From Gammaproteobacteria bacterium (GTDB taxonomy: Bacteria > Pseudomonadota > Gammaproteobacteria > Steroidobacterales > JABDLF01), in NCBI GenBank assembly GCA_041565075.1, contig JBFGOQ010000006.1, forward strand, positions 724-64,723: a stretch of DNA of 64,000 bases, read 5' to 3'. Below are positions 35,689-55,066 of this stretch, in pieces (position 1 is the stretch's first letter; the number at the start of each line of letters is the position of its first letter). The notes beneath the pieces were generated by a model. The model worked only from the letters and a program-made list of their open reading frames with translations. It was not told where the DNA came from and made no database searches. The translations under genes and the position numbers were made by a program.

Positions 35689-36932
35689 AGCGCGCGATCG
35701 AGCGCGCCGATAAGGCGCTCGACTTCCTTGCCGGTGTTGTAGTGCACGAGCGAAGCCCGCACCACGCCGTTCTGCGGAGCGAGTCCGAGGTGCTCAATCA
35801 GTCGCGGCGCATAAAAATGTCCCCAGCGAATCGCGATCTTGTGCGGATCTATTGCCGGCGGGATGGTTGCCGAATCGCGATCTGCCACCACGAATGAAAT
35901 AGTCGGCGTGCGCACTGCCGAAGCCGCCGACGGATTGCCGATGATCCGAACCCGCGGGTGGCCGTCAAGAAATTCCAGCAACGGAGCAGCGATGCTTGCT
36001 TCGTGACGGCTGATCCAGTCCACGGCAAATTTCATTTTTACCTGGTCATCCCCCCCATCGGGTGCGCCGGCAGCCACACCGAGTTCATGGTAGTACTCGG
36101 GAATACCGCCACTTGCGTAAGCGAGTTCATAATTCACGCCGCCGGGTTGCAACTTGAGGGGCACATCGCCGGCTTCAAAAAAGTAGTGGTTGATGTTGTC
36201 CAGCGCTTCCAGCAGTGGCCGCTTGCCAATCATTACAGCCTGGTGCGGTCCATAGACCTTGTACAGGCTGAAGGTGTAGTAATCGACATCCCAGGCTTGC
36301 ACGTCAATGGCATGATGGGGCGCATAAGCGACGCCATCAACGCACACTTGCGCATTGCGCTCATGAACGAACCGGGTTATCTCGGCCACCGGTTCGATAC
36401 TGCCAAGTATGTTTGACGTGTGCGTAAAGCACACGAGTCGCGTGCGCGCGTTCATGAGCGTCCCGAGATCGTCCAGTTCCAGACGCAGGCTGTCACGATT
36501 GAGTTCCCAGGTACGCAGCACGATGCCGCGTTCGGCGAGCCGGCACCATGGGCTGATATTGGCCTCGTGATCGACGTTGGTCACGATAATCTCGTCGCCC
36601 TTGTGCAGACGAGGTGCGAGCGCGCGTGACAGGCGGGAAATGAGCGCGCTGGTCGATGGTCCCAGGATTATCTCGGCCGGATCCCGCGCATTGGTGAATC
36701 GGGTAAGCGCTGCCACGGACGCGTCCAGGCGTTGTTGGGCGAGCATGGAGACTTCGTAGCTGGCGCCCAGCTGGACCGGGCATTCGCGCAGGTAGCGTGT
36801 CGCGCGGTCGATCACGCGGCCGAGCGGCAGCGAGCCGCCGGCGTTGTCCATGAACACCCAGTCATTCGCGAGGCCGGGAAACTGAGCGCGCACGAAATCG
36901 AGGGTGGCGGACGGCGGTTCAGGCGGCTTCAT
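35685..36932 (-). CDS. Class-V PLP-dependent enzyme (cysteine-desulfurase-like, VC1184-type by recollection)
   Basis: Fold-type I features: TNVDHEANISPW and the putative PLP lysine in FSLYKVYGPH. 415 aa. Confidence 0.85.
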   Translation of the reverse strand: MKPPEPPSATLDFVRAQFPGLANDWVFMDNAGGSLPLGRVIDRATRYLRECPVQLGASYEVSMLAQQRLDASVAALTRFTNARDPAEIILGPSTSALISRLSRALAPRLHKGDEIIVTNVDHEANISPWCRLAERGIVLRTWELNRDSLRLELDDLGTLMNARTRLVCFTHTSNILGSIEPVAEITRFVHERNAQVCVDGVAYAPHHAIDVQAWDVDYYTFSLYKVYGPHQAVMIGKRPLLEALDNINHYFFEAGDVPLKLQPGGVNYELAYASGGIPEYYHELGVAAGAPDGGDDQVKMKFAVDWISRHEASIAAPLLEFLDGHPRVRIIGNPSAASAVRTPTISFVVADRDSATIPPAIDPHKIAIRWGHFYAPRLIEHLGLAPQNGVVRASLVHYNTGKEVERLIGALDRAL

Positions 36933-38598: not shown

Positions 38599-38613
38599 GG
38601 CTTAAGTCTCCGC

Positions 38614-41400
38614 CTAATCCGCTTCTTCGCGAGCGATGCGCACGCCGCGTTCGTCGCGAATGATCTCGAGGTCGGCCGGCAACTCAAAGCCAGGCACGTC
38701 CATGGTTTGCACGCGTGCCATGCCGCCGGTTTGGTCGCTGCCGGCATGTTCCCCTGGCTTGAAGTAAATAATCTGCTTCCAGCAGCGCTTGATCTTGTCG
38801 CCGAGTACCAGGACTACATCGCCCGGACCGGCAAGTTCCAGCGCACGCTGGGTAGCCTCCTGTTCGTCCGGGATGATGTGAATGCTGTCGTCAGGGACAT
38901 CGTTGGCCAGCAGGGTCTTGCGTAACATCTGCGGCACTTCGTCGTCACCGCGCCCGCGTCGATAGTCATCGCGTCGACAGACATAGATATCGAAATGTCC
39001 CGCTGCGGCGGTCGCGATTTCCTCGACATCTTCGTCGCGGCGATCGCCCGGTGCGGCGAGCACGACAATGCGCCTGCCGGTGACCTCGAGACGGTCGATG
39101 ACGTCGCACATGGCTTTGACGGCCGCCGGGTTGTGCGCGTAATCGAGAATAACCTTGAAAGGATGCTCATCAAATACATTCATGCGACCCGGCGCCTGGA
39201 AGAAATTGCTGCCGAAAGTCCGCAGGCCCTGAATGATATGTTCCAGGCTGACCTCCATGTTATAGGCCAGGGCGGCGGCAAACATGGCGTTTTGCACGTT
39301 ATGGGTCGCGCGACCTTCGAGGGTGGCCGGAATGAGATGCGTCCACATGAGCGGTATGTGCCGCATGTTGTCATAGATGGTAATCATGTAGCCGTTCATG
39401 CCCTGCTCGAGGACGACGGCCCGCCCGCCTGCCTGGATGTGTTCTTTGACCAGCGGGTGAGCCGGATTCATGGTGACGTAGCAGACATGGCGTGCGTCGG
39501 TATAGTCCGCCATTTGCAGGCAACGGGGATCATCGGCGTTGAGAACGGCCGCCACCTGGGCGACTTCCACGGGCACGCGCTTGAGTTCAGCCAACTGGTC
39601 AAGCGTGTCGATACCCTTGAGGCCAAGATGATCCGACGCGACGTTCAGGCAGCAGGCCACATCGCACTCGCTGAAGCCCAGCCCGCTGCGCAGCATGCCG
39701 CCACGCGCAGTTTCGAGTACCGCGGCGTCAATCATGGGATCCCGCAGGATCATGCGCGCGGAAATCGGGCCGGTCATGTCACCTTCTACCGATAACTGCC
39801 CATCAATGTAAACGCCATCCGTGGTTGTCAGCCCGACAACATGGCCTTTCATCTTGAGTACATGTGCCAGCATTCGCGCGGTGGTGGTCTTGCCATTGGT
39901 GCCGGTAATGGCTGCGATTGGAATACGACTGGCAGCCCCTGGCGGGAACAGCATCTCCACGACAGGTCCCGCCACGTCCCGCGGCGACCCTTCACTGGGC
40001 GCCACATGCATACGGAACCCCGGGCCCGCATTGACCTCACAAATGCCGCCACCGGTTACGCGATAAGACTCGGCGATATCGGAGGTGAGGAAATCCACGC
40101 CGCCCACGTCGAGACCTATGGCCATGATCGCGCGAATGGCCATTTCCTGGTTGTCGGGATGAATGATGTCGGTAACGTCGATGGCGGTGCCGCCGGTTGA
40201 TAAATTGGCGGTGGAACGCAGGAATACGACCTCGTCTTCTGATGGCACGGACTGCCGGTCATATCCCATCTGGCCCAGCAGCCGGTCAGCCTGATGATCG
40301 AACTCCAGGCGCGTCAGCACTTTCTCATGGCCAACGCCACGGCGCGGATCCTTGTTTACCTCCTCGACAAGTTGTTCGACCGTCGAACTGCCATCACCGA
40401 CGACATGCCCCGGTACACGCTTGGCCGCCGCCACCACTTTGCCGTTGACCACCAGAATCCGATGATCCATGCCGTCGATATAGGACTCCACGACCACGGT
40501 GCGCCCGTGTTCGCGGGCCTTTTCGAAAGCCACGCTGACTTGTTCGTCAGTATTGAGGTTGATGGATACGCCACGGCCATGATTGCCGCTGAGTGGCTTC
40601 AGCACTACCGGGAATCCTATGCGATTGGCTGCGCGCACGGCTTGCGTGGCCGTCTGCACCATAATTTGCTTTGGAACGGGCAGGCCCAGGTCCCGCAGAA
40701 TTGCGTTGGTTTCTTCCTTGTCCGAGGCCAGATCGACACCGATATTCGAGGTGTTGCTGGTGACGGTAGCCTGGATGCGCTTTTGAAAACGGCCATGCCC
40801 GAGTTGCAGCAAGCTATAGCGATTTAATCGTATCCATGGAATGCCCTTTGCTTCCGCTGCACGCGCAATCGATGCTGTACTTGGGCCGAGCTCGCGTCGC
40901 TGCGCGTACTTGATGAACTGGTCGCGTTCCTGATTGAAGTCCCAGTCGTCGCCGGGTGCCTGCGCCGGTCGCAGCTGTGCCGGCAGCAGGTAGTGCAGGA
41001 TATCGAGAGCGATACGCCCGGCCTCGCGACCCACAGCTTCGTCATGATATTCGAATACCATATTGTAGAAGCCGGGCTGGCCGTCTACCGAGCGGGTGCG
41101 GCCGAAACTCACATCGGAACCCGCGACGTTTTGCAGTTCGATGGCTACATGCTCCATGACATGACCGAGCCACGTGCCCTGATCTTCGCGCATGCGCCTT
41201 ACAAAGCCGCCTGGCTCCCGGTAGGAGCAACCGTGTTTGTTGAGTCCGGGTAACATCTCCAGCAGGCGCTCTATATATTCAGCGCCGAGCCGCGAGGTTG
41301 GCCAGGCCTCCAGTTCGCCGAGGTCGAGGACATGTCGGATAACAGGGAATCGGGCATAGACGTTTGGCCCTACATAAACATTGGTCTCGGTTATTCTCAT
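38614..41400 (-). CDS. cphA: Cyanophycin synthetase
   Basis: 928 aa. It has an N domain, an ATP-grasp region (VVLKPLSGNHGRGVSINL, ICEVNAGPG) and a Mur-ligase-like M domain (AITGTNGKTTTARM). Confidence 0.95.
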   Translation of the reverse strand: MRITETNVYVGPNVYARFPVIRHVLDLGELEAWPTSRLGAEYIERLLEMLPGLNKHGCSYREPGGFVRRMREDQGTWLGHVMEHVAIELQNVAGSDVSFGRTRSVDGQPGFYNMVFEYHDEAVGREAGRIALDILHYLLPAQLRPAQAPGDDWDFNQERDQFIKYAQRRELGPSTASIARAAEAKGIPWIRLNRYSLLQLGHGRFQKRIQATVTSNTSNIGVDLASDKEETNAILRDLGLPVPKQIMVQTATQAVRAANRIGFPVVLKPLSGNHGRGVSINLNTDEQVSVAFEKAREHGRTVVVESYIDGMDHRILVVNGKVVAAAKRVPGHVVGDGSSTVEQLVEEVNKDPRRGVGHEKVLTRLEFDHQADRLLGQMGYDRQSVPSEDEVVFLRSTANLSTGGTAIDVTDIIHPDNQEMAIRAIMAIGLDVGGVDFLTSDIAESYRVTGGGICEVNAGPGFRMHVAPSEGSPRDVAGPVVEMLFPPGAASRIPIAAITGTNGKTTTARMLAHVLKMKGHVVGLTTTDGVYIDGQLSVEGDMTGPISARMILRDPMIDAAVLETARGGMLRSGLGFSECDVACCLNVASDHLGLKGIDTLDQLAELKRVPVEVAQVAAVLNADDPRCLQMADYTDARHVCYVTMNPAHPLVKEHIQAGGRAVVLEQGMNGYMITIYDNMRHIPLMWTHLIPATLEGRATHNVQNAMFAAALAYNMEVSLEHIIQGLRTFGSNFFQAPGRMNVFDEHPFKVILDYAHNPAAVKAMCDVIDRLEVTGRRIVVLAAPGDRRDEDVEEIATAAAGHFDIYVCRRDDYRRGRGDDEVPQMLRKTLLANDVPDDSIHIIPDEQEATQRALELAGPGDVVLVLGDKIKRCWKQIIYFKPGEHAGSDQTGGMARVQTMDVPGFELPADLEIIRDERGVRIAREEAD

Positions 41401-42251
41401 GCGTCTTCCCCGCGCGGCTTGCTGATATCGGGCGCAGCGCTGGCCCGCCGGGAGGCAATTTCGAAATGGCCGCCAGCCACCAGAATGTGCAGGCGTACGC
41501 CAATCAGGCTGACTGGTTGATCGCGGCGCGCCTTGGCCATGGAGGAATGCTCGATTTCCGATGGATCTACGATGGTGATGCCGCCGCTGCCGACGACGTC
41601 AAGGGTATCGCCTGGCCGGATAAAAGCAGCAGTGTCCTCGTCGAGGCCGATGCCGACCGCGAATGGGTTGTAGGCGAGCGCAGTCAGCAGACGGCCGAGG
41701 CGGTCGCGCTGTCTGAAATGCTGGTCAATGATGAAGTTGTTGGTGAGCCCCAGACCCGGCGCCAGGGTCACCATGTTGGGGCTGGGTGTGCTGCCTTCGA
41801 GACCGCCGGCAATCATGTGCTCCGGCATGAAGGCCGCACCGGCAGAAGTGCCGGCCACATGCATGCCGGCGGCGTTCTGACGGCGAATGGCCTGGGCGAC
41901 TTTGGTGCCCCCCAGAGTGGTGGACAGGCGCAGCTGGTTGCCGCCGGTCATGAAGACGCCATCCGCTTCTTCGATAGCGCCAATATGTTGCTGCGCGTTG
42001 CAGTCCGCCCGTGTTTCGATGGGCAGGACATGTGCATGATCGACACCCAGGCGACGAAACAGGCGCTCGTAACGCTTGCCGGTGTCGGCTCTCTGGGATG
42101 CGGTGGGTATGATAGCCACCCGCGCACGCCTGCCACCGCACAAGCCGACAAATTTTTCGAGAATTTCGGGGTTGTTGAATTTTTCCTCGGCACCACCGAT
42201 CGGCACGATGTGTCCGCGCTCATTGCTGGGATGACTGGGTGACGGGCACAT
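41397..42251 (-). CDS. cphB: Cyanophycinase (peptidase S51), no signal peptide
   Basis: IVPIGGAEEK, FMTGGNQLRL and the catalytic-Ser context VAGTSAGAA. The stop overlaps the cphA start (ATGA). Confidence 0.92.
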   Translation of the reverse strand: MCPSPSHPSNERGHIVPIGGAEEKFNNPEILEKFVGLCGGRRARVAIIPTASQRADTGKRYERLFRRLGVDHAHVLPIETRADCNAQQHIGAIEEADGVFMTGGNQLRLSTTLGGTKVAQAIRRQNAAGMHVAGTSAGAAFMPEHMIAGGLEGSTPSPNMVTLAPGLGLTNNFIIDQHFRQRDRLGRLLTALAYNPFAVGIGLDEDTAAFIRPGDTLDVVGSGGITIVDPSEIEHSSMAKARRDQPVSLIGVRLHILVAGGHFEIASRRASAAPDISKPRGEDA

Positions 42252-43436
42252 TCAGATTTGCTCCTCGCACTGGTCTTCTTCGAACCTTCCGGCCACCACC
42301 TGGATGTTGTCGCGCAGGTGCCAGCGCCCCCTCGCCATGACGCCGTTAACCTTCAGCTCATCGTCGAGTACCACGAGGTCGGCATCGTTGCCCACCGCGA
42401 TGGCGCCTTTGCCGGCAAGGCGCAACAGGCGGGCCGGATTGGTGGTAATACTTGGCAATACCTGTGCCAGCGTCAGGCCGCGGCCCACTGCGCGGCGCAG
42501 CATGTCCGCCAGTGCACCAGGCTGGCCGACATCCATGCTTAACATTTCACCGTGCTTGTCGAAAACCGGCAGACAGCCGCCACCGTCGGAGCTGACCGTG
42601 ACATGGGCCGCCGGTGCGCCGCTTTCAAGATAACGGTACAAGGCCTCGTCTGCCCACCATGCGTCGTCTGCCTGGTCCACCGGAAAAGCAGTCAGATCTA
42701 TGGTGCATCCTGCATGCGCCAGTTCCAGTGCCTCGTCAAACAGGGCGCGCTTGCGGTTCACATGTGTGGGATTAAATACTCTGGCGGGCAGTTCGCTGCC
42801 GGCCAGAGCCGCGCGCACCAGTTCCAGACCGCGCGCACCGTCACCGAGGTGCAAATGTAAAATACCCGCCTTGCGGCTGATGAGTCCGGCGACATGAACT
42901 TCGCTGGCCAGGCGCAGGATTTCGTCAAGTGTTGGCTGGCTGGAACGGTGGTCACTGATAGCGATTTCACCGGCTCCTATTACAGGGTCCAGGAAAACGA
43001 TATCGTCGCGTGCGCTGCCGGTAAGTGTTACAGGTGGCAAATGATAACCACCTGTATGACACCAGGCCGACAGGCCTTCTTCCCGCAGCGCCTGCGCACA
43101 GGCAAGCAAATCCCGCGTATGGCGCGTGCAGTCGTCGGTGCCAAGAACGCCCACAACGCTGGTCACGCCAGCGCGGGTGTAGCGCGACAGGCCCAGCGGC
43201 GGCACTCGTGATGCAAAACCGCTCTCGCCGCCGCCCCCGGTAAGATGTACATGCCCGTCGATGAAGCCGGGCACAACACGGTGGCCCTGCACATCGAGCG
43301 AAGGCGTGCCAGCAGGCACAGCAGGCACATCCTCGCCCATCCAGACGATTTTTTCGCCGGCAATGACGAGCTGCTTCAGGCCTTGCTCGTCCGGCGCAAA
43401 GACGCGGGCATTCAGGATCAGAGACAGCGGTTTCAT
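42252..43436 (-). CDS. iadA: Isoaspartyl (beta-aspartyl) dipeptidase
   Basis: PGFIDGHVHLTGGGGESG and AGVTSVVGVLGTD align closely with E. coli IadA. Confidence 0.92.
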   Translation of the reverse strand: MKPLSLILNARVFAPDEQGLKQLVIAGEKIVWMGEDVPAVPAGTPSLDVQGHRVVPGFIDGHVHLTGGGGESGFASRVPPLGLSRYTRAGVTSVVGVLGTDDCTRHTRDLLACAQALREEGLSAWCHTGGYHLPPVTLTGSARDDIVFLDPVIGAGEIAISDHRSSQPTLDEILRLASEVHVAGLISRKAGILHLHLGDGARGLELVRAALAGSELPARVFNPTHVNRKRALFDEALELAHAGCTIDLTAFPVDQADDAWWADEALYRYLESGAPAAHVTVSSDGGGCLPVFDKHGEMLSMDVGQPGALADMLRRAVGRGLTLAQVLPSITTNPARLLRLAGKGAIAVGNDADLVVLDDELKVNGVMARGRWHLRDNIQVVAGRFEEDQCEEQI

Positions 43437-44934: not shown

Positions 44935-45927
44935 ATGTCTGAGCTCTATTATGCGGCTGCCTGCCAGACCGATTTCGAGAGTCCTGCGGAACGCGGGGAG
45001 ATCGCGGCGCGCACCCGTCGCATGTGCCAGATCGTCGAGCAAACGATAGTCGGATACGAGCCTTTTTTCGATGTCAGGCTGCTGGTCTTTCCCGAGTTTG
45101 CCCACGCGGTGCCCGCCTACGATTCCGCCCGGACCTTGCTCGAGAAGCTGGCTGTGGAAGTGCCAAACGAGCATACCGACGCCTACGAAAAACTGACCAG
45201 GAAATACGGCTGCTATATTCAGACCGGCACCTTTCTCGAGCGCGATCCGGCGTTTGCGGGCATGGTGTTCAATACCACCGTGCTGATAGGGCCAGGCGGT
45301 GTGCTGTGCAAGTACCGCAAGGTCAATCCGTGGATTCCCTGGGAGGTGCACACGAGCCCGCACGATATCGAAGACTATGATCTTGACCTGTTTCCTGTCG
45401 CAGATACCGAACTGGGCAAGCTCGGCGTCGCGATTTGTTATGACTGGCTGTTCCCCGAAGTTACGCGCCAACTCGCATTCAATGGCGCAGAAGTACTGAT
45501 ACGCCTCTCCGCTTACATGGATCCCTGGGGTGCGACGCCACCCATGGATTGGTGGACCCTGTTCAATCGGGCGCGAGCGGCGGAGAACACGGCCTTTGTC
45601 GTGGCCGCCAACCAGGGCGCCAGCCTCGAACACTATCCACCCTTCAGCTGGCCCGGTGGCAGTATGGTGGTCGATTTTGACGGGCGCATTCTCGCCCAGG
45701 CGGACCCGGGTCCAGGTGAGAAAGTAGTGGTCGCGCCGATCGATATCGGTGCTCTGCGGCATGAGCGTGCACGGCGGCAGGGCCACGATATGCGCAGTCA
45801 CCTGCGCAGTGAGGCTTACGATTACCTGGACGCGCCGAGACTGGGGAAAGCGGTGCCCGAGGATCACCCGCTTGAGGTCGAATCGTTGCGCCAGCGTATC
45901 AAGGCTGCGCGAGACAAGTTGTCATGA
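44935..45927 (+). CDS. Carbon-nitrogen hydrolase, aliphatic-amidase/formamidase-like
   Basis: E-K-C contexts LLVFPEFAH, CKYRKVNPWIPWE and AICYDWLFPE. The 330-aa length and the YRK..PW motif resemble AmiE/AmiF. Confidence 0.85.
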   Translation: MSELYYAAACQTDFESPAERGEIAARTRRMCQIVEQTIVGYEPFFDVRLLVFPEFAHAVPAYDSARTLLEKLAVEVPNEHTDAYEKLTRKYGCYIQTGTFLERDPAFAGMVFNTTVLIGPGGVLCKYRKVNPWIPWEVHTSPHDIEDYDLDLFPVADTELGKLGVAICYDWLFPEVTRQLAFNGAEVLIRLSAYMDPWGATPPMDWWTLFNRARAAENTAFVVAANQGASLEHYPPFSWPGGSMVVDFDGRILAQADPGPGEKVVVAPIDIGALRHERARRQGHDMRSHLRSEAYDYLDAPRLGKAVPEDHPLEVESLRQRIKAARDKLS

Positions 45928-48900
45928 TCATGCTGATCCGGCTGCGCGCGTTCGTATTGTCATCAGTGGCCTGTTTTCTGGTGGCGTGCAGCGCGCATGA
46001 TGCTGGCCCGGCATTAAGCGAACAGGATATCGCGGACAACAACCGCGGTGTCGGGCTCATGGGCTATTTCGACTACGAAGGAGCGCGCCAGATTTTTGCA
46101 CAACTCGCGCAGCGACATCCGCTGTGGCACGACGTGCAGGTGAATCTTGCGATTGCAACCCTGAATCGCCAGCAGCAGGGCGATGAACAGACTGCACTGG
46201 ATCTGGTGATGCAAGTTCTGCTGGCAAACCCCGAACACTTGCGCGCCCGTTACGTGGCAGGGCTGCTGCGGCTCAATGCCGGCGATTCTGCGATGGCCCT
46301 GGCGGATTTCGAGCACGTGGCCCGGGCCGATCCTGACGACCCTTTCGCGGCGTATTACAGCGCGCTGTGTCGCGCACAGCTGGGCGACGCCGAGCGGGCG
46401 CTTGCCGATTACCGGCGGGCGATCGAGCTCGATCCGTACTTGCGCAGCGCCTACTATGGGGCGTTCCAGGCCTTGCAGCGACTGAAGCGTCGCGAAGAAG
46501 CCAGGGAAATGCTGGCGCAATTCCAGCGCCTCGCTGACAACCCCCAGGCCCGCTTGGCCGAGTTCAAGTACACACGCATGGGGGACAAGGGCGCAGCGCA
46601 GGTCGTCAACCTGCAGGCACCTGCAGAAATCCAGCAGCCCGAAGGCGAATTGTTTGTCGCGGCCCGCCCTATGGCGGATCTGCCGCCGCTGGTGGGTGCG
46701 CAGGAGACGGCCATGACGGTTGCCGATGCGAATGGCGATGGCGTTCTTGATCTTTATATCGCCCAGACTGCCAACGGCAGCTTGCTGGTGACAGGTGGCG
46801 CAGACGGTACTTTCACAATGCAGGCGCAGCACAAACTTTCTGGTATCGCCAACGTTCGGGCGGCATTGTGGGGCGACGTCGACAATGATGGCCTGCTCGA
46901 TGCCTACCTGTTACGCGACGGCCCGAACCAGCTATGGCAGCAGGTTGCACAGGGCGAATGGCGGGACGTCAGTGAAACCTCTGCCAGCAGTGGTGGCGAC
47001 ACGGACAGCATCGATGGCGCAATGTTCGACGCCGACCACGACGGTGACCTCGATATATTTGTTATCAACGCCGATGCTCCGGTGGAACTTTTCAATAACA
47101 ACCTGGATGGCACATTTCGTCCGCTGGCGAAGACCCAGGATTTGGCGCGCAGCGGGCGGCGTGCGCGCAGCGTAGTGGTTACTGACCTGGATCATGACCG
47201 CGACACCGATATCCTGGTGGTCTATGCATCGCCACCGCATGACGTGTTCCTGAATGACCGCTTGTGGGCTTACCGCAGTGCACAGGACATGGCACTGTTC
47301 AGCGAGGCAAGCCTTGCGGCCGCCGTGGCTGGCGACGTCGATGCCGACGGCAGTGCCGAAATTTATGCCATTGCCGAGGATGGCGCGCTGCTCAGGTTTA
47401 CGCGCGCAGCAAGTCACGCCTGGCAACAAGAGAGCCTGGCCCCGGCCGGCACGGCGAGTGCCGCAGGGATTGCTCAGCTTGCGCTTGCCGACCTGGATGG
47501 CGACGGGCGTCAGGAACTTATTTATTCCATCGACGAAGGTTGGCAGGTTGGCCGTCTCGATGGCGAAGGTTTTGAGCCTGGTTTCACCGGCAAGCTCGGT
47601 TCGCACGGGCATTGGTTGCTGGCCAACCTCGAGCTGCCCGCGGGCCCGTCAATAATCGGGGCCGTAAATGACGGGCCGCCGTTGATCTGGAAGCCGGGCC
47701 GGGGACGCCACGCTTTCATCGGGCTCAGCTTCACGGGGCTCGAGGAAAAAGCCGAGTCGATGCGCTCCAATGCATCGGGCATCGGTACACGCGTCGACCT
47801 GCGCATTGATTCGCGATGGCGCTCGCATGACACCCTGCGCAACCACACTGGGCCCGGGCAGAGCCTGCAGCCATTGTTTGTCGGCGCGGGCGGTTATGAA
47901 AGCATCGACTACGTCGCTCTGACATGGTCGGACGGTGTTTTTCAAACCGAGCTGGGGCTGCGCCCCGGGACCCTGCACAAGATCACCGAAACCCAGCGAC
48001 AGCTGTCGAGTTGCCCGGTGCTGTTTGCCTGGGACGGGGAAAAGTTCGCCTTCGTCAGTGATCTGCTGGGCGTCGGCGGAATTGGATTCAATACCGGCTT
48101 CGGACAGTATGCGACGCCACGGCCGTGGGAGTTTTTTCTGCTTCCCCGGAACAGTGTCAGGGACCATGCAGGCAGCATTGAGCTGAAAATTGCGGAACCC
48201 ATGGAAGAGGTCGCCTATATCGATACTGCACGGCTGCGGGCCTATTCGTTGCCTGCTGGCTGGCAAATGGTCCTGGACGAACGCATGGGGCTGTCTGAAC
48301 CGCTGCCGAGCGGGCGAGCAATTTTTTACCGCACCGAAAGCCTGCCCGTCAGCGCACGCAATGACAGGGATGCCGACGTCCTGGCTGCGCTCATGGCAGC
48401 AGATGGCAGTGCTGCGCCCGTAGGAGAAAGAGATCGGCGCTTTATTGGCCGCCTCGCCGAGCAACATGTTCTGGAACTCGAATTTCCGGCGCCACTGAAT
48501 GATGAGCAGCGCATCCCGTGGCTGGTTGTGGATGGTTGGGTGGAGTACCCGTATTCGCAAACCGGCTTTGCGGCCTGGCAGGCCGGTGCTGCCTTCGAAG
48601 CCCCGAGCCTCGCAGCCGGCAATGCAGCGGGCGAGTGGGTCGAAATTGCCCACCAGTTCGGCTACCCGGCGGGCATGCCACGGCGCATGGCCTTCCCGCT
48701 CGACAAACTGCCGGCAGCAACCACGCGCCTGCGACTTGCGACCAATCTCGAGGTCTATTGGGACCGCATTTCGGTCGTGTTTGAAGAACCTGCGCCTGAT
48801 GAGCTGCAAGTGGAAGAATTAACCTTGCTGAAAGCAGTGCTTGAGGCTCCGGGTTTTCCTTTGCGTAAAGATGGCCCACAACGCCGCCCGGACTATGATT

Positions 48901-49226
48901 TTGACCGCAGGACGCCGTTATGGGACACACGCCATCCCAAGGGCCATTACACGGCCTTCGGTGATGCTACCGAACTTGTGGCCGCTAACGATGACGCGCT
49001 CGCAATAGTCGGACCGGGCGAGGCGCTGTCGTTGACCTTTGCCGCACCAACGCGGGCCGGGGGGCAGACGCACCTGGTTTTGGAAGCCAGGGGATGGGCC
49101 AAGGACATGGATCTGTATACCAATAGCGGCGGTACGGTGGGCCCGCTGCCCGCCCTGGGCCTTGATCCGACGCGACGCGAGGCATTGCACGAGCGTTACA
49201 ATACGCGGTTTGAAGCCGGCTACTGA
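45924..49226 (+). CDS. TPR + FG-GAP/VCBS + UnbV/ASPIC-like lipoprotein (1100 aa)
   Basis: Lipobox FLVAC. TPR region at about aa 30-200. FG-GAP repeats (DANGDGVLDLYIA, GDVDNDGLLDAYLL, DADHDGDLDIFVI, DLDHDRDTDILVV, GDVDADGSAEIYA, DLDGDGRQELIY). UnbV-like segment SNASGIGTRVDLRI. The start overlaps the upstream stop (ATGA). Confidence 0.85.
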   Translation: MIMLIRLRAFVLSSVACFLVACSAHDAGPALSEQDIADNNRGVGLMGYFDYEGARQIFAQLAQRHPLWHDVQVNLAIATLNRQQQGDEQTALDLVMQVLLANPEHLRARYVAGLLRLNAGDSAMALADFEHVARADPDDPFAAYYSALCRAQLGDAERALADYRRAIELDPYLRSAYYGAFQALQRLKRREEAREMLAQFQRLADNPQARLAEFKYTRMGDKGAAQVVNLQAPAEIQQPEGELFVAARPMADLPPLVGAQETAMTVADANGDGVLDLYIAQTANGSLLVTGGADGTFTMQAQHKLSGIANVRAALWGDVDNDGLLDAYLLRDGPNQLWQQVAQGEWRDVSETSASSGGDTDSIDGAMFDADHDGDLDIFVINADAPVELFNNNLDGTFRPLAKTQDLARSGRRARSVVVTDLDHDRDTDILVVYASPPHDVFLNDRLWAYRSAQDMALFSEASLAAAVAGDVDADGSAEIYAIAEDGALLRFTRAASHAWQQESLAPAGTASAAGIAQLALADLDGDGRQELIYSIDEGWQVGRLDGEGFEPGFTGKLGSHGHWLLANLELPAGPSIIGAVNDGPPLIWKPGRGRHAFIGLSFTGLEEKAESMRSNASGIGTRVDLRIDSRWRSHDTLRNHTGPGQSLQPLFVGAGGYESIDYVALTWSDGVFQTELGLRPGTLHKITETQRQLSSCPVLFAWDGEKFAFVSDLLGVGGIGFNTGFGQYATPRPWEFFLLPRNSVRDHAGSIELKIAEPMEEVAYIDTARLRAYSLPAGWQMVLDERMGLSEPLPSGRAIFYRTESLPVSARNDRDADVLAALMAADGSAAPVGERDRRFIGRLAEQHVLELEFPAPLNDEQRIPWLVVDGWVEYPYSQTGFAAWQAGAAFEAPSLAAGNAAGEWVEIAHQFGYPAGMPRRMAFPLDKLPAATTRLRLATNLEVYWDRISVVFEEPAPDELQVEELTLLKAVLEAPGFPLRKDGPQRRPDYDFDRRTPLWDTRHPKGHYTAFGDATELVAANDDALAIVGPGEALSLTFAAPTRAGGQTHLVLEARGWAKDMDLYTNSGGTVGPLPALGLDPTRREALHERYNTRFEAGY

Positions 49227-49259
49227 GCCGTCCTGCGTCGACCGGACTAATTTGCTGTT

Positions 49260-52052
49260 GTGAAAGTCGCTGATCAGAATCAGTCATCGTCCGCGCCTTC
49301 CCGGCGAACCTACGTGCCTGCCGTCGGCCCACGCTTGCGCAAGCTGCTGTTCTTCGTATTCGGCTTGTTCGCGCTGCTGGCCATAAACGCGTTTTACCTG
49401 GCAGCCGTTACTTTCGCGGAATGGTTCACGGGATCGACATTCCAGGGTTACTTTTACCAGTTCATGTTCCTCGGGCACCTGGCACTGGGATTGCTGCTGA
49501 TCATGCCAGTGCTTGTTTACGGCGCTATCCATATCAGCAATGCCCATGACCGGCCAAACCGGCGCGCCGTAAAAGCCGGTTTCGCCCTGTTCACGACGGT
49601 ACTGATCCTGCTGGCCAGCGGCCTGGTGCTCACCCGTGGAATCCCGATTATCGAGGTACGCGATCCGGCCGGCCGCCAGCTTGCTTACTGGGTGCACGTG
49701 GTTGCACCGCTGGTGGTGGCCTGGTTGTTCGTGCTGCACCGGCTCGCGGGCAAGCGCATCAACTGGCGGGCAGGCGCGTGGGTCGCGGGCGTCGCCGCCG
49801 CCTTCGCAGCAGTGGCTATCCTCCTGCAGATCCAGGACCCGCGGCAATGGAACGTGGCCGGCCCAGCCAGCGGTGAAGCCTATTTCTTTCCGTCTCTGGC
49901 GCGCACGGCGAGTGGCAACTTCATACCGGCCAGGTCACTCATGAAAGATGCATATTGCCAGGAGTGCCACGCGGACGTTCACGACGCCTGGTCGGTGAGT
50001 GCGCACCGCTTCGCATCGTTCAATAATCCGGCTTACCTGTTTTCGGTGCGCAATACGCGCGAGAAATCTCTGGCCCGCGATGGCACCGTTCAGGCGGCGC
50101 GATTCTGTGCGGGTTGTCATGATCTCGTGCCGTTCTTCAGTGGCGCATTTGACGATCCCGCATTCGATGACGTTAATCATCCGACAGCAGCGGCCGGCAT
50201 TACCTGCACGGGCTGTCACGCCATCACCCATATCAACAGCCCCAGGGGCAACGCCGATTACACTATCGAAGAGCCATTGCATTACCCCTTCGTGGACAGC
50301 GACCAGGCCTTGCTGGCGTGGCTTAACCGTTTCATGGTCAAGGCCAAGCCGGCGTTCCACAAAAAGACCTTCCTGAAGCCCCTGCACCAGAGCACAGAAT
50401 TTTGCGGTGCCTGCCACAAGGTTCATTTGCCGGAGGAGCTCAACCAGTACCGATGGCTGCGCGGCCAGAACCACTATGATTCATTCTTGCTGAGCGGCGT
50501 TTCCGGGCATGGTGTAACCAGTTTCTACTACCCTGAGCAGGCTGAGACCAATTGCAACGGCTGTCATATGCCGCTCACAGTTTCAGACGACTTTGGTGCC
50601 CGGGTGCGCGATGCCAGCGCCGAACTCAAAGTGCACGATCACCAGTTTCCTGCAGCCAACACCGCCATTCCGCATTTACTCGGCCTGGGCGAGGCAGCGA
50701 TCAGGGCGCACGAAGCATTCACAACTGACAGCGTGCGCGTGGACTTGTTTGCCCTGCGCAGAGATGGCCTGATCGATGGCGAACTCCTGGGGCCGCTACG
50801 GCCCGACCTGCCGGCCGTCGAGCCTGGCTCGACATATCTGTTGGAAACCGTCGTTCGGACTCTGAAACTCGGTCACCTGTTTACCCAGGGCACAGCGGAC
50901 TCCAATGAAGTGTGGCTCGATGTGGAACTGCATGCCGATGGCAAACTGCTGGGAAGAAGCGGCGCAATGGCCGAGGATGGAACGGTCGATCCCTGGTCGC
51001 ATTTTATCAACGCTTATGTTCTTGATCGCAACGGCGATCGGATTGACCGGCGCAACGCCGAGGATATTTTCACCGCGCTATACAACAACCAGATCCCGCC
51101 GGGAGCCGCTGACACCGTACATTATCGGTTCAAGGTGCCGGCAACGGCATCGCGATCGATAAGCATCAGTGTGCGGCTCAAGTATCGCAAGTTCGATACC
51201 AACTACATGCGCCTGTTCCAGGGGGCGAGTTTCGACGGCAATGACTTGCCGGTGATGGTCATCGCCGAGGACAGTGTCACGCTGCCGGTTGCGGGTACGC
51301 AGCTGACCACAGAAGTACGCGATATTCCCGAGTGGCAACGCTGGAACGATTACGGCATTGGTCTGTTACGCAAGTCCGGTCGCGGTCAGTTACGCCAGGC
51401 AGAAGAGGCCTTTACCAAAGTCGGTGCTCTGGGACGTCCCGACGGCCCGTTGAACCTGGCGCGGGTCTATGTGCGCGAGGGGCGCCTTTTGGAGGCGGTG
51501 GATGCACTGGATGCGGCGGCACGCCACGATCCGCCTGCGCCGCCGTGGTCGGTCAGCTATTTCACCGGCCTGGTAAATATGCAAAACGGTTATCTCGACG
51601 AGGCCATTGAGAATTTCCGCAGTCTGGCCGAAACCCGGTTCAACGAAGCGCGAGCCCGGGGCTTCGATTTTTCCCTGGATTACCGGCTTTTGAATGAGCT
51701 GGCCCTGGCCTTGTTCGAACGCTCCAAGCTGGAGCGCGGTGCGTCTCGCAAGGCGGCCCGCGAAGCGCTGCAGGAGGAAGCCATGCGCTGGTTCTCCCGC
51801 AGCCTGGCAATCGATCCCGAGAATGCCGAGGCGCATTACGGTCTCGCCCAGATCCACACAGCCCGTGGCGCAGGCGAGCAGGCCACCCGGCACCGTGCGC
51901 TGCACGCGCGTTATAAAGTTGATGACAATGCCCGCGATCGCGCCGTGGCGGCCGCACGCCGCCGTGATGCCGCTGCCGATCATGCTGCCAACGCCGTGGT
52001 CATCTATGACTTGCAGCGCCCGGCAGACGCAGCCGGCGGGAAAGGCCCGTGA
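49260..52052 (+). CDS. Membrane-anchored multiheme c-type cytochrome with C-terminal TPR domain (930 aa)
   Basis: Five predicted TM helices (aa ~28-190). Five CxxCH motifs: CQECH 49956-49970, CAGCH 50106-50120, CTGCH 50205-50219, CGACH 50403-50417, CNGCH 50553-50567. TPR-like C-terminal ~230 aa. Confidence 0.85.
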   Translation: MKVADQNQSSSAPSRRTYVPAVGPRLRKLLFFVFGLFALLAINAFYLAAVTFAEWFTGSTFQGYFYQFMFLGHLALGLLLIMPVLVYGAIHISNAHDRPNRRAVKAGFALFTTVLILLASGLVLTRGIPIIEVRDPAGRQLAYWVHVVAPLVVAWLFVLHRLAGKRINWRAGAWVAGVAAAFAAVAILLQIQDPRQWNVAGPASGEAYFFPSLARTASGNFIPARSLMKDAYCQECHADVHDAWSVSAHRFASFNNPAYLFSVRNTREKSLARDGTVQAARFCAGCHDLVPFFSGAFDDPAFDDVNHPTAAAGITCTGCHAITHINSPRGNADYTIEEPLHYPFVDSDQALLAWLNRFMVKAKPAFHKKTFLKPLHQSTEFCGACHKVHLPEELNQYRWLRGQNHYDSFLLSGVSGHGVTSFYYPEQAETNCNGCHMPLTVSDDFGARVRDASAELKVHDHQFPAANTAIPHLLGLGEAAIRAHEAFTTDSVRVDLFALRRDGLIDGELLGPLRPDLPAVEPGSTYLLETVVRTLKLGHLFTQGTADSNEVWLDVELHADGKLLGRSGAMAEDGTVDPWSHFINAYVLDRNGDRIDRRNAEDIFTALYNNQIPPGAADTVHYRFKVPATASRSISISVRLKYRKFDTNYMRLFQGASFDGNDLPVMVIAEDSVTLPVAGTQLTTEVRDIPEWQRWNDYGIGLLRKSGRGQLRQAEEAFTKVGALGRPDGPLNLARVYVREGRLLEAVDALDAAARHDPPAPPWSVSYFTGLVNMQNGYLDEAIENFRSLAETRFNEARARGFDFSLDYRLLNELALALFERSKLERGASRKAAREALQEEAMRWFSRSLAIDPENAEAHYGLAQIHTARGAGEQATRHRALHARYKVDDNARDRAVAAARRRDAAADHAANAVVIYDLQRPADAAGGKGP

Positions 52053-53905
52053 ACGAGAAAGTGCCCGAGCGACCACAGCTGCAAGGCGATGCGCAAGATG
52101 TGCCGCAAGACGACCGGATTATCGCGACCGCCTTTCGCTACTCCGTGGCTGGCCTGTTGTTTATTGCGGTAATCGGTGCGGGCCTCACCTGGTGGCTCAA
52201 TCGTCCGCCGGCAGTGGAAGATGTGCAGGAAAGCGTTCTGAGCGGTCCTGAGCGCGGCTTGCAGGGCGCGCAGCTGACGCCACCCTTGGTCGGCTTTACC
52301 GAGGTCGGCGAAGCTGCAGGCATCGACTTCGTTCATGTCAATGGCGCCTATGGCGAACGGCTGTTGCCGGAGACCATGGGCAGCGGCGTGGCGGTACTCG
52401 ATTTTGACGGCGACGGCTTGCAGGATCTCTTGTTCGTCAATGCCCGGGGCTGGCCCTGGCGTAAGTCAGCCATCCAGGCAACGCAAGGCCTATATCGCAA
52501 CCTTGGCAACGGGCGTTTCGCCGATGTTACCGCCGGCTCCGGTCTGGCACTCAGCTTTTACGGTGTCGGTGTGGCGGTGGCCGATTATGATGGCGATGGG
52601 CACACCGACATATTCATAACTGCACTGGGCGAAAACCGCTTATTTCGCAATACTGGCAAGGGCACTTTCGAAGAGCGCAGTGCCTACGCCGGTGTCAGCG
52701 GCGCTGCGGACGCCTGGAGCACAAGTGCCGCGTTTCTGGATTACGATCGCGACGGTGATCTTGACCTGTTTGTCGCCAATTACGTGCGCTGGTCACGGGA
52801 GATCGACCTGGAGGTCGATTACCAGCTCACCGGTATCGGTCGCGCCTACGGCCCGCCCAGCAACTATGAAGGCACCCACAACTATCTTTATCGCAACGAC
52901 GGCGAGGGCCGCTTCAGCGACGTGTCGCGCGCGGCCGGCATCGAGGTCGATAACCCGGCTACCGCGCGCGCGGCAGGCAAAGGCCTGGCTGTTGTGCCGC
53001 TCGATGTCGACGCCGACGGCTGGACGGATCTCGCTGTCGCCAACGACACCGTAGGTAATTTCCTCTATCACAATCTGGGTAACGGCCAATTCGAGGAAAT
53101 CGGCGCGCAGGCGGGGCTGGCCTTCGATAACCAGGGTAATGCCACGGGCGCCATGGGCATCGATGCCGCCCTGTTCAACGAGGATGACGATCTCGCCGTT
53201 GCCATCGGAAATTTCGCTAACGAGATGACCTCGTTCTATGTTGCCCGTGGCAGCAGCGGCTTGTTTACAGACGAAGCGATCATTACGGGTGTCGGACCGG
53301 ACAGTCGTCTGGCGCTGAGCTTCGGGCTGTTTTTTTTCGATTACGATCTGGATGGCCGGCTTGATATGTTGCAAACCAACGGCCATGTGGAAAACGAGAT
53401 CAACACTGTGCAGCCCAGCCAGCAATATGCCCAACCCACCCAGCTGTTCTGGAATTGCGGACGCAAATGTCCGCGCGAATTCGTCAAGGTGCCTGATGAC
53501 ATCACCGGCGACCTGGCGTCCCCCGTGGTAGGTCGCGGAGCTGCCTATCTCGACTACGACGAGGACGGTGACCTGGATCTGGTCATCACCCAGGTCGCGC
53601 GCAGGCCATACTTGCTGCGCAATGACCAGTTACTGGGGCACCACTGGCTCAGGGTCAAACTTGCCGGCAAGCCACCCAATACCGCGGCCATCGGTGCGCA
53701 CATCGAACTGGTGGCGGACGGACGTCGTCAGCGGCAGGTCGTCAGGCCATCGCGGAGCTACCTTTCGCAGGTGGAATTACCGGTAACTTTTGGTCTCGGC
53801 GGTCACGCCGGTGCGGTAACCGTCAATGTTGTATGGCCAAATGGCGAGCGCAGCAGCTTTGACATTACACAAACCGATCGTTTGGTTACGCTCGCCCAGC
53901 CCTGA
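52049..53905 (+). CDS. CRTAC1-family FG-GAP/VCBS + UnbV/ASPIC protein with N-terminal membrane anchor
   Basis: Repeats LYRNLGNGRFADVT, LFRNTGKGTFEE, LYRNDGEGRFSDVS and LYHNLGNGQFEEIG with D.DGDG loops. C-terminal UnbV segment NTAAIGAHIELV..SYLSQVELPVTFGLG. The GTG start overlaps the upstream stop (GTGA). Confidence 0.88.
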   Translation: MNEKVPERPQLQGDAQDVPQDDRIIATAFRYSVAGLLFIAVIGAGLTWWLNRPPAVEDVQESVLSGPERGLQGAQLTPPLVGFTEVGEAAGIDFVHVNGAYGERLLPETMGSGVAVLDFDGDGLQDLLFVNARGWPWRKSAIQATQGLYRNLGNGRFADVTAGSGLALSFYGVGVAVADYDGDGHTDIFITALGENRLFRNTGKGTFEERSAYAGVSGAADAWSTSAAFLDYDRDGDLDLFVANYVRWSREIDLEVDYQLTGIGRAYGPPSNYEGTHNYLYRNDGEGRFSDVSRAAGIEVDNPATARAAGKGLAVVPLDVDADGWTDLAVANDTVGNFLYHNLGNGQFEEIGAQAGLAFDNQGNATGAMGIDAALFNEDDDLAVAIGNFANEMTSFYVARGSSGLFTDEAIITGVGPDSRLALSFGLFFFDYDLDGRLDMLQTNGHVENEINTVQPSQQYAQPTQLFWNCGRKCPREFVKVPDDITGDLASPVVGRGAAYLDYDEDGDLDLVITQVARRPYLLRNDQLLGHHWLRVKLAGKPPNTAAIGAHIELVADGRRQRQVVRPSRSYLSQVELPVTFGLGGHAGAVTVNVVWPNGERSSFDITQTDRLVTLAQP

Positions 53906-55066
53906 TCAGCCTGTGCGCGTGGCGCGTTTACGCAACAGGATTTCTGCTGGCGGCGCGGTGCGCAGGACTTTGACGATGCGCTCGGCGGCATGCCCATCCC
54001 CGTAAGGGTTCTCGTTGCTACCCGAAAGCGACTTCCTGACCCCGGAACTGAGCCCGCGCCGCACCGCTGCCACGATGGCTTCTGCTTGCGCCGGCGCGTC
54101 AATAATATTGGCGGCCTTTTCGCGGCCCGTCTGCCGCAGACCCACATTCACCGTTGGCAATGCCAGCGACGGTGTTTCCATGATGCCGCTGCTGGAGTTG
54201 CCCAGCATCAGCGAGGCCTCGCGCATCAGCGCCCAGAAATCCAGGTGTGCCAGGTTGACGAACACCCGGGCGTTTTTGCGCGTGTCGCAAAAAGAGTCTG
54301 CCCGGGCAATCAATGCCTGCGAGCCTGCGTCCGCATTGGGAAAACAAAAAATCAGCTGTTGCGGCAGGGCCGCCAGGGCCGTGTAAAACTCCTCAACCTC
54401 GCACAGGGTATCGCGCGCCAGCGTCACGGGATGGTAAGCAACGACTATAAACTCCGGTGCCAGCTTGAGGCCCAGGGTAGCTTCCAGTGTGGCGCGCGCG
54501 GGCAGCGCGCTTTTTTGCAGGTGGTCCAGGGATGGCGCGCCGACCCGGTGTACCCGCCAGGCCTCCTCGCCCATTGCAATTACGCGCTGCTGTGCACGCT
54601 GCGTAGGCGTGAAATGCAAATGGCTGAGCTTGGTCAGGGCATTGCGAACGGCATCGTCAATAGCGCCTTCGCTGATCTCACCGCCCTCAATATGCGCAAT
54701 CGGGATTCGCAGGGCCAGGGCGACCGATGCCGGGGCGAGCAGCTCGTAACGATCGGCAATGAGCAGGAGGATGTCCGGGCGGAGATCTGCGAGTACATCG
54801 GTAAAGCCCAATGTTGCCTTGCCGATGGTGCGGGCCATATCGGTATCCGCGTCCCCCGGTTCCAGGCAAGGCACAGTCTCGTGCACCTCGAAGCCTTCGG
54901 CGCGAATCTGGTCAACCGTGTTCCCGTAACGTTCGCACAGGTGGGCAGCGGTGACGATCAGCCGCAAATCAATCCCGGGTGAATCCAGGAGCGCGCGCAG
55001 GGGCCAGTACAGATGCCCGTAGTCGGCGCGGGAAGTGCTAACGACAGCGATGCGGCGACGCGGCAT
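53906..55066 (-). CDS. neuC: UDP-N-acetylglucosamine 2-epimerase (hydrolysing), NeuC-like
   Basis: IAVVSTSRADYGHLYWPL, ADRYELLAPA and PIAHIEGGEISEGAIDDAVRNALTKLSHLHF match the NeuC pattern. Confidence 0.85.
   Translation of the reverse strand: MPRRRIAVVSTSRADYGHLYWPLRALLDSPGIDLRLIVTAAHLCERYGNTVDQIRAEGFEVHETVPCLEPGDADTDMARTIGKATLGFTDVLADLRPDILLLIADRYELLAPASVALALRIPIAHIEGGEISEGAIDDAVRNALTKLSHLHFTPTQRAQQRVIAMGEEAWRVHRVGAPSLDHLQKSALPARATLEATLGLKLAPEFIVVAYHPVTLARDTLCEVEEFYTALAALPQQLIFCFPNADAGSQALIARADSFCDTRKNARVFVNLAHLDFWALMREASLMLGNSSSGIMETPSLALPTVNVGLRQTGREKAANIIDAPAQAEAIVAAVRRGLSSGVRKSLSGSNENPYGDGHAAERIVKVLRTAPPAEILLRKRATRTG

Follow-up and report, generated by a model that had tools for sequence, protein, structure and literature searches.

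A gene cluster centred on a membrane cytochrome and a CRTAC1-type propeller, the probable mark of an undescribed cell-envelope redox enzyme

What could an amidase-like hydrolase, a large lipoprotein, a membrane-bound multiheme cytochrome and a propeller protein be doing together, that their genes should lie end to end? The question is raised by a stretch of 64,000 nucleotides (nt) from a Gammaproteobacteria bacterium (contig JBFGOQ010000006.1), here called the window, in which four co-directional open reading frames (ORFs) lie within positions 44935-53905 of the + strand. An earlier reading of the sequence (the original prediction) had proposed these genes as an undescribed system and stated that no characterised function was known for the combination. 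Our literature search agrees on the latter point: queries on CRTAC1, UnbV or ASPIC together with cytochromes, and on FG-GAP together with multiheme or TPR proteins, found no description of the cluster and no function for its gene combination. We conclude that the cluster is probably the sign of an envelope redox enzyme not described before, and that the cytochrome and propeller have a realistic chance of being a new enzyme.

Gene order and conservation of the cluster

First in the extended cluster is a gene for a CN-hydrolase of the amidase/formamidase-like branch, predicted to be cytoplasmic (44935..45927; 330 amino acids (aa), ATG start). It is followed by genes for an envelope lipoprotein with TPR and FG-GAP domains (45924..49226; 1100 aa, ATG start), a membrane cytochrome (49260..52052; 930 aa, GTG start) and a membrane-anchored CRTAC1-type propeller (52049..53905; 618 aa, GTG start). 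The hydrolase and lipoprotein genes overlap in an ATGA at 45924-45927, the cytochrome and propeller genes overlap in a GTGA at 52049-52052, and a gap of 33 nt (49227-49259) separates the middle two. These coordinates, taken from the ORF list, and the junction sequences are those of the original prediction, and Pfam hidden Markov model searches confirmed its CN_hydrolase, TPR, FG-GAP, heme-motif and UnbV_ASPIC assignments. Pattern scans for promoters and terminators inside the cluster gave nothing beyond the shuffled expectation, and it is from their spacing that the four genes appear to be co-transcribed. In Rfam searches neither riboswitches nor RNA elements of other kinds turned up near the cluster, in the window or in four related loci. 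PADLOC models for anti-phage defence matched none of the four proteins (0/4), and to judge from these models nothing ties the cluster to phage defence.

The family of the cytochrome is very large: more than 6,500 proteins came up in a word-indexed search, of which the best 120 are full-length and 65-80% identical to the window protein. Among 50%-identity representatives, an exhaustive search gave 3,527 clusters with E < 1e-3, of which 788 passed E < 1e-30. A genome scan confirmed at least 595 cytochrome loci, and the locus comparisons reported here cover the best 80 of these (L001-L080). These come from Pseudomonadota, Planctomycetota, Acidobacteriota (mainly Thermoanaerobaculia), Verrucomicrobiota and Latescibacterota, and include one cultured strain, Pseudoalteromonas sp. 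P1-9. Across them the cytochrome is 55-70% identical over its whole length. Some of the Planctomycetota and Acidobacteriota cytochromes (62-66% identical to that of the window) are nearer to it than certain gammaproteobacterial ones (Pseudoalteromonas, 55%; L065, 58%), a pattern that suggests horizontal transfer of the cytochrome-propeller pair between phyla, or mis-binning of some metagenome-assembled genomes (MAGs).

Synteny was assessed by tblastn of the window proteins against the loci, with a partner counted at 45% identity or more. In 59 of the 64 loci with enough sequence, spanning five phyla, the gene directly downstream of the cytochrome, in the same orientation, is a CRTAC1-type homologue. 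The complete order of CN-hydrolase, 1100-aa protein, cytochrome and propeller was found in six of the 54 loci with enough upstream sequence. On several further short contigs the 1100-aa gene stands directly upstream of the cytochrome, and Pseudoalteromonas (L067) and L072 carry a rearranged version of the cluster. In 20 of the 80 loci a lipoprotein homologue is found no more than 10 kb from the cytochrome; most of the loci that retain the cytochrome-propeller pair lack one. The gene set is therefore syntenic in other genomes, as the original prediction required, but the deeply conserved unit is the pair and not all four genes. In members only 32-33% identical to the window cytochrome, an FG-GAP/UnbV_ASPIC gene sits immediately upstream of the cytochrome, with the order flipped, so the pairing survives rearrangement. 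Distance matrices of 60 cytochromes and their partners are strongly correlated (Mantel r = 0.89; the best of 999 permutations reached 0.20), which fits inheritance or transfer of the pair as a unit. Clustering of the neighbouring genes in the 80 loci revealed no additional universally conserved partner.

A reverse survey of context, made by six look-ups from CN-hydrolase homologues 70-85% identical to that of the window, gave a complementary picture. Four of the six revealed complete clusters that also contain a gene for a TPR protein (about 500 aa) and an additional CRTAC1-like gene (about 570 aa); these added genes are divergent from the CN-hydrolase in three clusters and co-directional and upstream in L091. 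One look-up returned the CN-hydrolase with a 1094-aa partner alone, and in the last, a CN-hydrolase copy lies beside a different cluster of CRTAC1 and heme-protein genes (L086, described below). The full cluster thus recurs in Planctomycetota and Gammaproteobacteria, with six genes in its fullest form and four in the window. By these comparisons it is modular, with a cytochrome-propeller core, a second pair, of amidase and lipoprotein, which only some genomes add to it, and, as an option, a pair of TPR and propeller genes. The repeated occurrence of one gene set in many unrelated genomes is judged to be far beyond chance.

Architecture of the membrane cytochrome

The cytochrome begins with a domain of five transmembrane (TM) helices that carries four conserved histidines (residues 24-191; nt 49329-49832), followed by a pentaheme c domain (residues ~229-470; nt 49944-50669), a beta-sandwich of the immunoglobulin-like (Ig-like) type (residues ~490-680; nt 50727-51299) and a TPR domain (residues ~690-910; nt 51327-51989), all on the + strand. 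Pfam recognises Cytochrome_C554 and TPR in the protein. An AlphaFold2 model built on an alignment of 35 members (predicted local distance difference test score, pLDDT, 91.6; predicted TM-score, pTM, 0.88) shows five long helices, a mainly helical heme region, the beta-sandwich at ~490-680 and a TPR superhelix from ~690. Foldseek comparison of this full-length model with the PDB found TPR proteins only, and a search with the modelled structure of a natural 741-aa homologue that has no TPR domain (P0125) gave nothing significant, only weak Ig-like or sandwich domains.

The five hydrophobic helices span residues ~29-47, 68-86, 106-124, 141-163 and 171-189. Their odd number, together with the positively charged N-terminus, puts the TPR domain as well as the heme and Ig-like domains on the periplasmic side; the original prediction had located the heme domain outside the cytoplasm on the helix count, and the N-terminal charge adds to this. 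Four histidines of the membrane domain (H73, H91, H146 and H160) are at least 90% conserved in the alignment of 35 members, which reaches down to 28% identity, and all four are invariant in a second cytochrome alignment. TM2 carries H73 and H91 and TM4 carries H146 and H160, and the AlphaFold2 model puts them on helices 64-95 and 136-162. H73 and H146 lie ~9-10 residues into their helices from the periplasmic side, and H91 and H160 are 2-4 residues from the cytoplasmic ends. Such pairs at matching depth form the pattern expected of two stacked bis-His b hemes spanning the membrane, and we infer that the domain binds them. The Ni_hydr_CYTB model of Pfam (HydC/FdnI) gave no match to the window cytochrome and is absent from the 25 commonest families among the 35 members scanned.

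Two variations at the N-terminus were seen in the family. Members of ~710-750 aa (P0219, P0224, P0225, P0251 and P0269) align only from the heme domain on, starting at their residues ~36-94, and may be variants without the five-helix domain or partial gene calls. P0205-P0209 and others have a longer and different N-terminus. The membrane module of the family looks exchangeable on the strength of these alignments.

The periplasmic part contains exactly five CXXCH motifs, which use all ten cysteines of the protein; there is no cysteine outside them and no in-frame TGA. All five motifs are invariant in the 35 members, as are four histidines outside the motifs (H249, H367, H461 and H539). As the hemes number five and such histidines four, one of the hemes may be catalytic. 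Among solved structures, profile searches identified the pentaheme cytochrome c552 of Thermochromatium tepidum (5ze8; 6e-10 and 1.2e-7) and MccSep (9wt8/9wt9; 7e-5), with weak matches to cytochrome c554 and MccA. Profiles alone gave these matches, and a single-sequence search of the PDB with residues 1-700 returned nothing significant. The MccSep match consists of three collinear segments and aligns the heme 2 motif of the cytochrome (C283-H287) to MccSep H122. Among NCBIfam models, ExtKL (NF040886) is the most frequently matched non-TPR family, found in 34 of the 35 members (best E 4.6e-12), all far below its cut-off of 250 bits; the window cytochrome itself scores 14.9 bits (E = 0.0075) and does not reach that cut-off. 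A loop of the Ig-like domain, G538-H-x-F-T-x-G-T545-x-D-S-N-E-x-W552, is among the most conserved periplasmic motifs of the family.

MccSep, a multiheme cytochrome c selenoprotein, consists of a helical cap with five hemes on an Ig-like stem, with the active site at heme 2; hemes 1, 3, 4 and 5 are bis-His and heme 2 is His/Cys-ligated by a Cys (C239) that the family conserves strictly, and a loop of the Ig domain bears, at position 325 (Sec or Cys in the family), a catalytic selenocysteine (Sec). The enzyme reduces polysulfide (bioRxiv 10.1101/2025.11.18.688581). By profile comparison, the window cytochrome is a remote relative of MccSep/ExtKL with a different chemistry and not a member of that family. 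The parallel in layout makes it likely that the cytochrome is itself catalytic, and by this analogy it may act at heme 2 rather than serve only as a redox hub. The original prediction had cast it as the redox protein around which a complex is built. That it is a heme protein is upheld, whereas the four conserved TM histidines, the kinship with MccSep/ExtKL and the possible role as catalyst had been overlooked.

Partner proteins and neighbouring genes

The 618-aa partner of the cytochrome has a single hydrophobic stretch, an N-terminal signal-anchor helix (residues ~24-50; nt 52118-52198), followed by an FG-GAP propeller and a C-terminal UnbV_ASPIC domain (residues 547-613; nt 53687-53887). Pfam scores are 126 bits for FG-GAP_3, 55 bits for FG-GAP and 57 bits for UnbV_ASPIC (cut-off 23.4), and the protein matches human CRTAC1 (9etn) at 1e-16. 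The hydrophobic anchor is present in essentially all homologues. Asp predominates among its invariant residues, as it does in FG-GAP loops that bind Ca, and a binding or scaffolding role appears more plausible from this pattern than redox catalysis. Databases name the homologues "CRTAC1 family protein", and JGI names some of them "enediyne biosynthesis protein E4" (= UnbV). Bacterial CRTAC1/UnbV proteins are very numerous (at least 8,000 homologues at E <= 1e-20), and for none of them did our literature search find an experimentally established function.

The 1100-aa protein starts with a signal peptide and lipobox (residues 1-22), and its N-terminus, M-I-M-L-I-R-L-R-A-F-V-L-S-S-V-A-C-F-L-V-A-C22, ends in L-V-A-C22, which fits the lipobox pattern [LVI][ASTVI][GAS]C. 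By this pattern match it is a predicted lipoprotein. Most gammaproteobacterial homologues have a Cys that ends the N-terminal hydrophobic stretch, in four or five of them within a strict lipobox, and planctomycete homologues have TM anchors instead. Behind the signal peptide lie TPRs (residues ~48-215; nt 46065-46568), an FG-GAP propeller (residues ~255-610; nt 46686-47753), a weak UnbV_ASPIC match (residues 619-683; nt 47778-47972) and a conserved C-terminal domain (residues 690-1100; nt 47991-49223). Pfam finds the TPRs and FG-GAP_3 (104 bits), with UnbV_ASPIC at 19.4 bits, under its cut-off. The proposal that two proteins of the cluster carry FG-GAP/UnbV propellers therefore holds in both for FG-GAP, but UnbV_ASPIC exceeds its cut-off in the 618-aa protein only. 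Apart from its TPRs and C-terminal domain, the protein has a CRTAC1-like core. In the C-terminal domain 24 columns are invariant, among them the motif G-W-A-K-D-M-D-L-Y-T, and searches with its 410 aa, also as a 23-sequence profile, found no Pfam or PDB relative. It is a candidate for a new domain family. Export or anchor signals are present in all three large products and conserved in their homologues, in line with the extracytoplasmic location first proposed for them; that the three form a single physical envelope complex remains an extrapolation from these features.

The 330-aa protein matches the Pfam CN_hydrolase model with 133 bits, and the solved structures nearest to it are those of formamidases and aliphatic amidases (for example 5g3o, 4e-27). 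Against the NCBIfam equivalogs for formamidase and aliphatic amidase it scores 109 bits (cut-off 406) and 80 bits (cut-off 427), both far below the cut-offs, which sets it apart as a separate subfamily outside the AmiF and AmiE equivalogs. The catalytic tetrad Glu-Lys-Glu-Cys (E54, K129, E137 and C168) is invariant in 13 homologues, and no signal peptide or TM segment was found in the protein. A homologue of the ~1100-aa protein lies directly 3' of the CN-hydrolase in five of six independent look-ups. The enzyme had been described as having no obvious explanation at the front of the cluster; it is instead a conserved cluster member with an intact catalytic tetrad, and not a passenger.

Among the flanking genes of the window, only a UDP-N-acetylglucosamine 2-epimerase gene (53906..55066, - strand; Pfam Epimerase_2, 264 bits) behaves as a conserved neighbour. 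It is convergent with the cluster and abuts it, its stop codon adjoining that of the propeller (53905/53906) with no spacer or terminator. Epimerase homologues (52-59% identity) occur near the cluster in five gammaproteobacterial loci (L002, L006, L067, L072 and L079). In Pseudoalteromonas sp. P1-9 the epimerase (L067 21200-22348) heads a tight one-strand string, in which it is followed by a CRTAC1-like gene (570 aa), a TPR gene (507 aa) and the gene for a 1096-aa protein, with gaps of 8 and 23 nt and an overlap of 10 nt. The epimerase is, from these positions, a possible associate of the cluster. Upstream, pmbA is only 43 nt distant from the cluster and is not a conserved neighbour elsewhere.

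Just upstream of pmbA lies a cyanophycin gene set (36919-43436, - strand), which encodes a 928-aa synthetase (Cyanophycin_syn, ATP-grasp and Mur ligase), a 559-aa paralogue with the Mur ligase only, a cyanophycinase (Peptidase_S51) and an amidohydrolase of the isoaspartyl-dipeptidase type. Two planctomycete versions of the cluster have an ArgR gene inside or beside them. A link of the cluster to arginine or nitrogen storage is conceivable from this gene context. The window also contains a fused ATP-sulfurylase/APS-kinase (APS, adenosine 5'-phosphosulfate) gene (4973-6685), and a gene of this type lies directly upstream of the distant cytochrome homologue P0270 (L085 1-922). TPR-sulfotransferase fusion genes are found near the cluster in L004 (17598-19838), L006 and L009. 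This sulfurylase and sulfotransferase neighbourhood may be coincidence. Other features of the window, all on the + strand, include a 514-aa protein with many TPRs and a C-terminal putative 2-oxoglutarate (2OG)-Fe(II) oxygenase domain (PF13759; 15675-17219), a separate 593-aa FG-GAP protein (30650-32431) and a second, unrelated CN-hydrolase, ~30% identical to that of the cluster (26209-27102), between yhdP (22422-26282) and tldD (27182-28627).

The different cluster found by the reverse survey belongs to a member of the Phycisphaerales (CP070827; L086 1-10032). There, a CN-hydrolase copy 73% identical to that of the window adjoins genes for an FG-GAP/UnbV protein, a 969-aa protein with Cytochrome_C554 and a beta-propeller, a Reg_prop protein and two Peripla_BP_6 binding proteins, an arrangement that matches hydrazine-synthase-homologue clusters (PMC12758564). 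Its hydrazine-synthase-like cytochrome was considered as a homologue of the window cytochrome and rejected, as the similarity is limited to the CXXCH motifs.

Possible function and comparison with known systems

We read the cluster, with a probability of about one half, as an envelope redox module around a membrane-integral "bc-type" multiheme oxidoreductase that is quinone-coupled and periplasmic and has the propeller as its obligate partner. H73 and H146 at the periplasmic face and H91 and H160 at the cytoplasmic face would ligate two b hemes, by way of which electrons would cross the membrane in exchange with the quinone pool, and the electrons would run through the five c hemes. Heme 2 (C283-H287) would be the counterpart of the catalytic heme of MccSep, probably without a distal His, and would be capped by the invariant Ig loop (G538-W552) to form a catalytic site for a small substrate. 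The TPR domain would dock the propeller, as well as the lipoprotein and the extra TPR/propeller pair where these are present. The propeller and lipoprotein would bind or present the substrate, and the amidase would act in the cytoplasm on a related nitrogen-containing compound.

Two hints as to the substrate, neither of them strong, come from gene context. Nitrogen is suggested by the presence of the same amidase family and a CRTAC1-type gene beside hydrazine-synthase-like heme proteins and a Peripla_BP_6 pair in the Phycisphaerales; envelope glycans are suggested by the recurrent epimerase and by the TPR-sulfotransferases near some clusters.

Several results weigh against this bc-type oxidoreductase. 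The membrane domain is covered by no Pfam or NCBIfam model, an hhalign profile comparison of it with E. coli FdnI gave a probability of 1%, and Foldseek detected no significant solved relative for either the TM or the heme domains. The Ig loop aligns with the Sec loop of MccSep, placing Thr545 at Sec325, in a HMMER segment that is sub-threshold though collinear, and the Cys239 and Sec325 that define MccSep are missing from the cytochrome, so that its chemistry is not transferable. The propeller partner has no conserved Cys or His, and the other neighbouring genes vary by lineage and yield no substrate clue.

A more specific form of the proposal, which we put forward tentatively, is that the pair could be a respiratory or detoxifying enzyme, linked to quinones, so far unrecognised and with a wide distribution among aerobic heterotrophs in soils, in sediments and in the oceans, with catalysis at a non-His-ligated heme under the Ig loop, a substrate unlike those of known multiheme enzymes and the propeller as obligate subunit. 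Its substrate could then be a nitrogen species, since the same amidase family and CRTAC1-type propellers adjoin hydrazine-synthase-like heme proteins.

The best placed of the rival explanations, though an unlikely one, is that the cytochrome does no more than relay electrons, as a quinol dehydrogenase in the manner of CymA or CbcL, and that catalysis resides on the propeller, on the C-terminus of the lipoprotein or on an unlinked partner. TPR domains suit the docking of partners, the 24 invariant columns of the 410-aa lipoprotein domain are rich in Asp, Glu and Trp and could belong to an enzyme, and the hydrazine-synthase homologues, which are unrelated heme proteins, likewise have CRTAC1-type genes in their company (PMC12758564; L086). 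However, the propeller has no conserved residues of redox type, the lipoprotein is missing from most loci that keep the pair, and the heme and Ig-like layout of the cytochrome, with four invariant distal histidines per five hemes, mirrors a catalytic pentaheme enzyme.

It is improbable that the module serves extracellular electron transfer or metal redox (Fe/Mn), with the cytochrome feeding electrons toward the outer membrane. The fusion of b and c domains would be analogous to CbcL/MtoC (PMC6295460), models of the MtrC/MtrF and DmsE type match weakly, and many hosts come from sediments. Those weak matches, however, reflect generic CXXCH similarity, and the neighbour-gene clusters yielded no porin of the outer membrane and no other cytochrome family that recurs; ten of their representatives proved in Pfam to be TPR, transpeptidase, ATP-binding cassette (ABC) exporter and similar proteins.

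An assembly or remodelling machine for envelope or surface glycans, in which the TPR and propeller scaffolds do the work and the cytochrome is a redox sensor or accessory, has similarly poor prospects. It would account for three TPR modules and up to three integrin-like propellers, for the recurrence of the epimerase, which in Pseudoalteromonas shares one gene string with cluster members, and for the TPR-sulfotransferase genes nearby in L004, L006 and L009. The epimerase and sulfotransferases are, however, missing from most non-gammaproteobacterial loci, and of all members the cytochrome is conserved best (55-70% identity between phyla), which would be unusual for an accessory sensor. Mere adjacency of four genes with no common function, to which the uninformative promoter and terminator scans would be no obstacle, is very improbable given synteny across five phyla, also after rearrangement, and overlapping start and stop codons.

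The cytochrome family is large and unusually conserved, and its hosts are abundant and poorly cultured (Gammaproteobacteria represented by soil and sediment MAGs, as well as Thermoanaerobaculia, Planctomycetota and Verrucomicrobiota). If the cytochrome is a quinone-coupled enzyme, it would be an unaccounted electron sink or source in models of these organisms. The cluster also gives bacterial CRTAC1/UnbV proteins, which share their domain pair with human CRTAC1 and the unexplained enediyne protein E4/UnbV, a first functional context, and a propeller acting as obligate subunit would be the first function for this bacterial family. The cultured carrier, Pseudoalteromonas sp. P1-9, makes the question experimentally tractable.

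All of the domain types, fused b/c membrane cytochromes and pentaheme enzymes are known already. No literature description was found for the combination of a five-helix domain bearing four histidines with pentaheme, Ig-like and TPR domains, for the near-obligate pairing of cytochrome and propeller, or for the extended cluster with amidase and lipoprotein. MccSep/ExtKL, the polysulfide reductase of Geobacter sulfurreducens (9wt8; NF040886), and cytochrome c552 (5ze8) share with the window cytochrome a helical domain with five CXXCH motifs that is followed by an Ig-like sandwich. MccSep has four bis-His hemes and one special heme, which the four invariant distal histidines of the window cytochrome fit. 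In contrast to MccSep, the window cytochrome has no cysteine outside the motifs and hence no His/Cys ligation, adds an N-terminal five-helix domain and a C-terminal TPR domain, and is near-obligately paired with a CRTAC1-type gene; its hosts belong mostly to aerobic heterotroph lineages, whereas those of MccSep are Desulfobacterota and Nitrospirota.

The membrane part has its closest functional analogy in CbcL of Geobacter, a fused b/c membrane quinol oxidase (PMC6295460). CbcL, MtoC and MtrH, bc-type quinol oxidases or quinone reductases in the inner membrane of Geobacter and others, resemble the window cytochrome in joining, in one polypeptide, a membrane domain of several helices, believed to contain two b hemes, and a periplasmic multiheme c domain (PMC6295460). 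In CbcL, however, the TM domain is C-terminal and there are nine c hemes, whereas that of the window cytochrome is N-terminal and precedes five; CbcL has none of the Ig-like and TPR domains or the propeller partner of the window system. No similarity to the HydC/FdnI domain is detectable in the window cytochrome, and CbcL and the window cytochrome are not detectably homologous.

The partner genes compare with three further systems. The best CN-hydrolase matches are to the AmiF/AmiE branch of the nitrilase superfamily, which has the same Glu-Lys-Glu-Cys residues. Hydrazine-synthase-homologue clusters of non-anammox Planctomycetota and Desulfobacterota contain a CRTAC1-family gene among genes for periplasmic c-heme proteins (PMC12758564), although these heme proteins are not homologous to the window cytochrome. 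CRTAC1/ASPIC (9etn) and the enediyne protein UnbV/E4 combine an FG-GAP propeller with a C-terminal UnbV_ASPIC domain, as does the window partner, which differs from them in being tethered by an N-terminal TM helix and genetically tied to a cytochrome.

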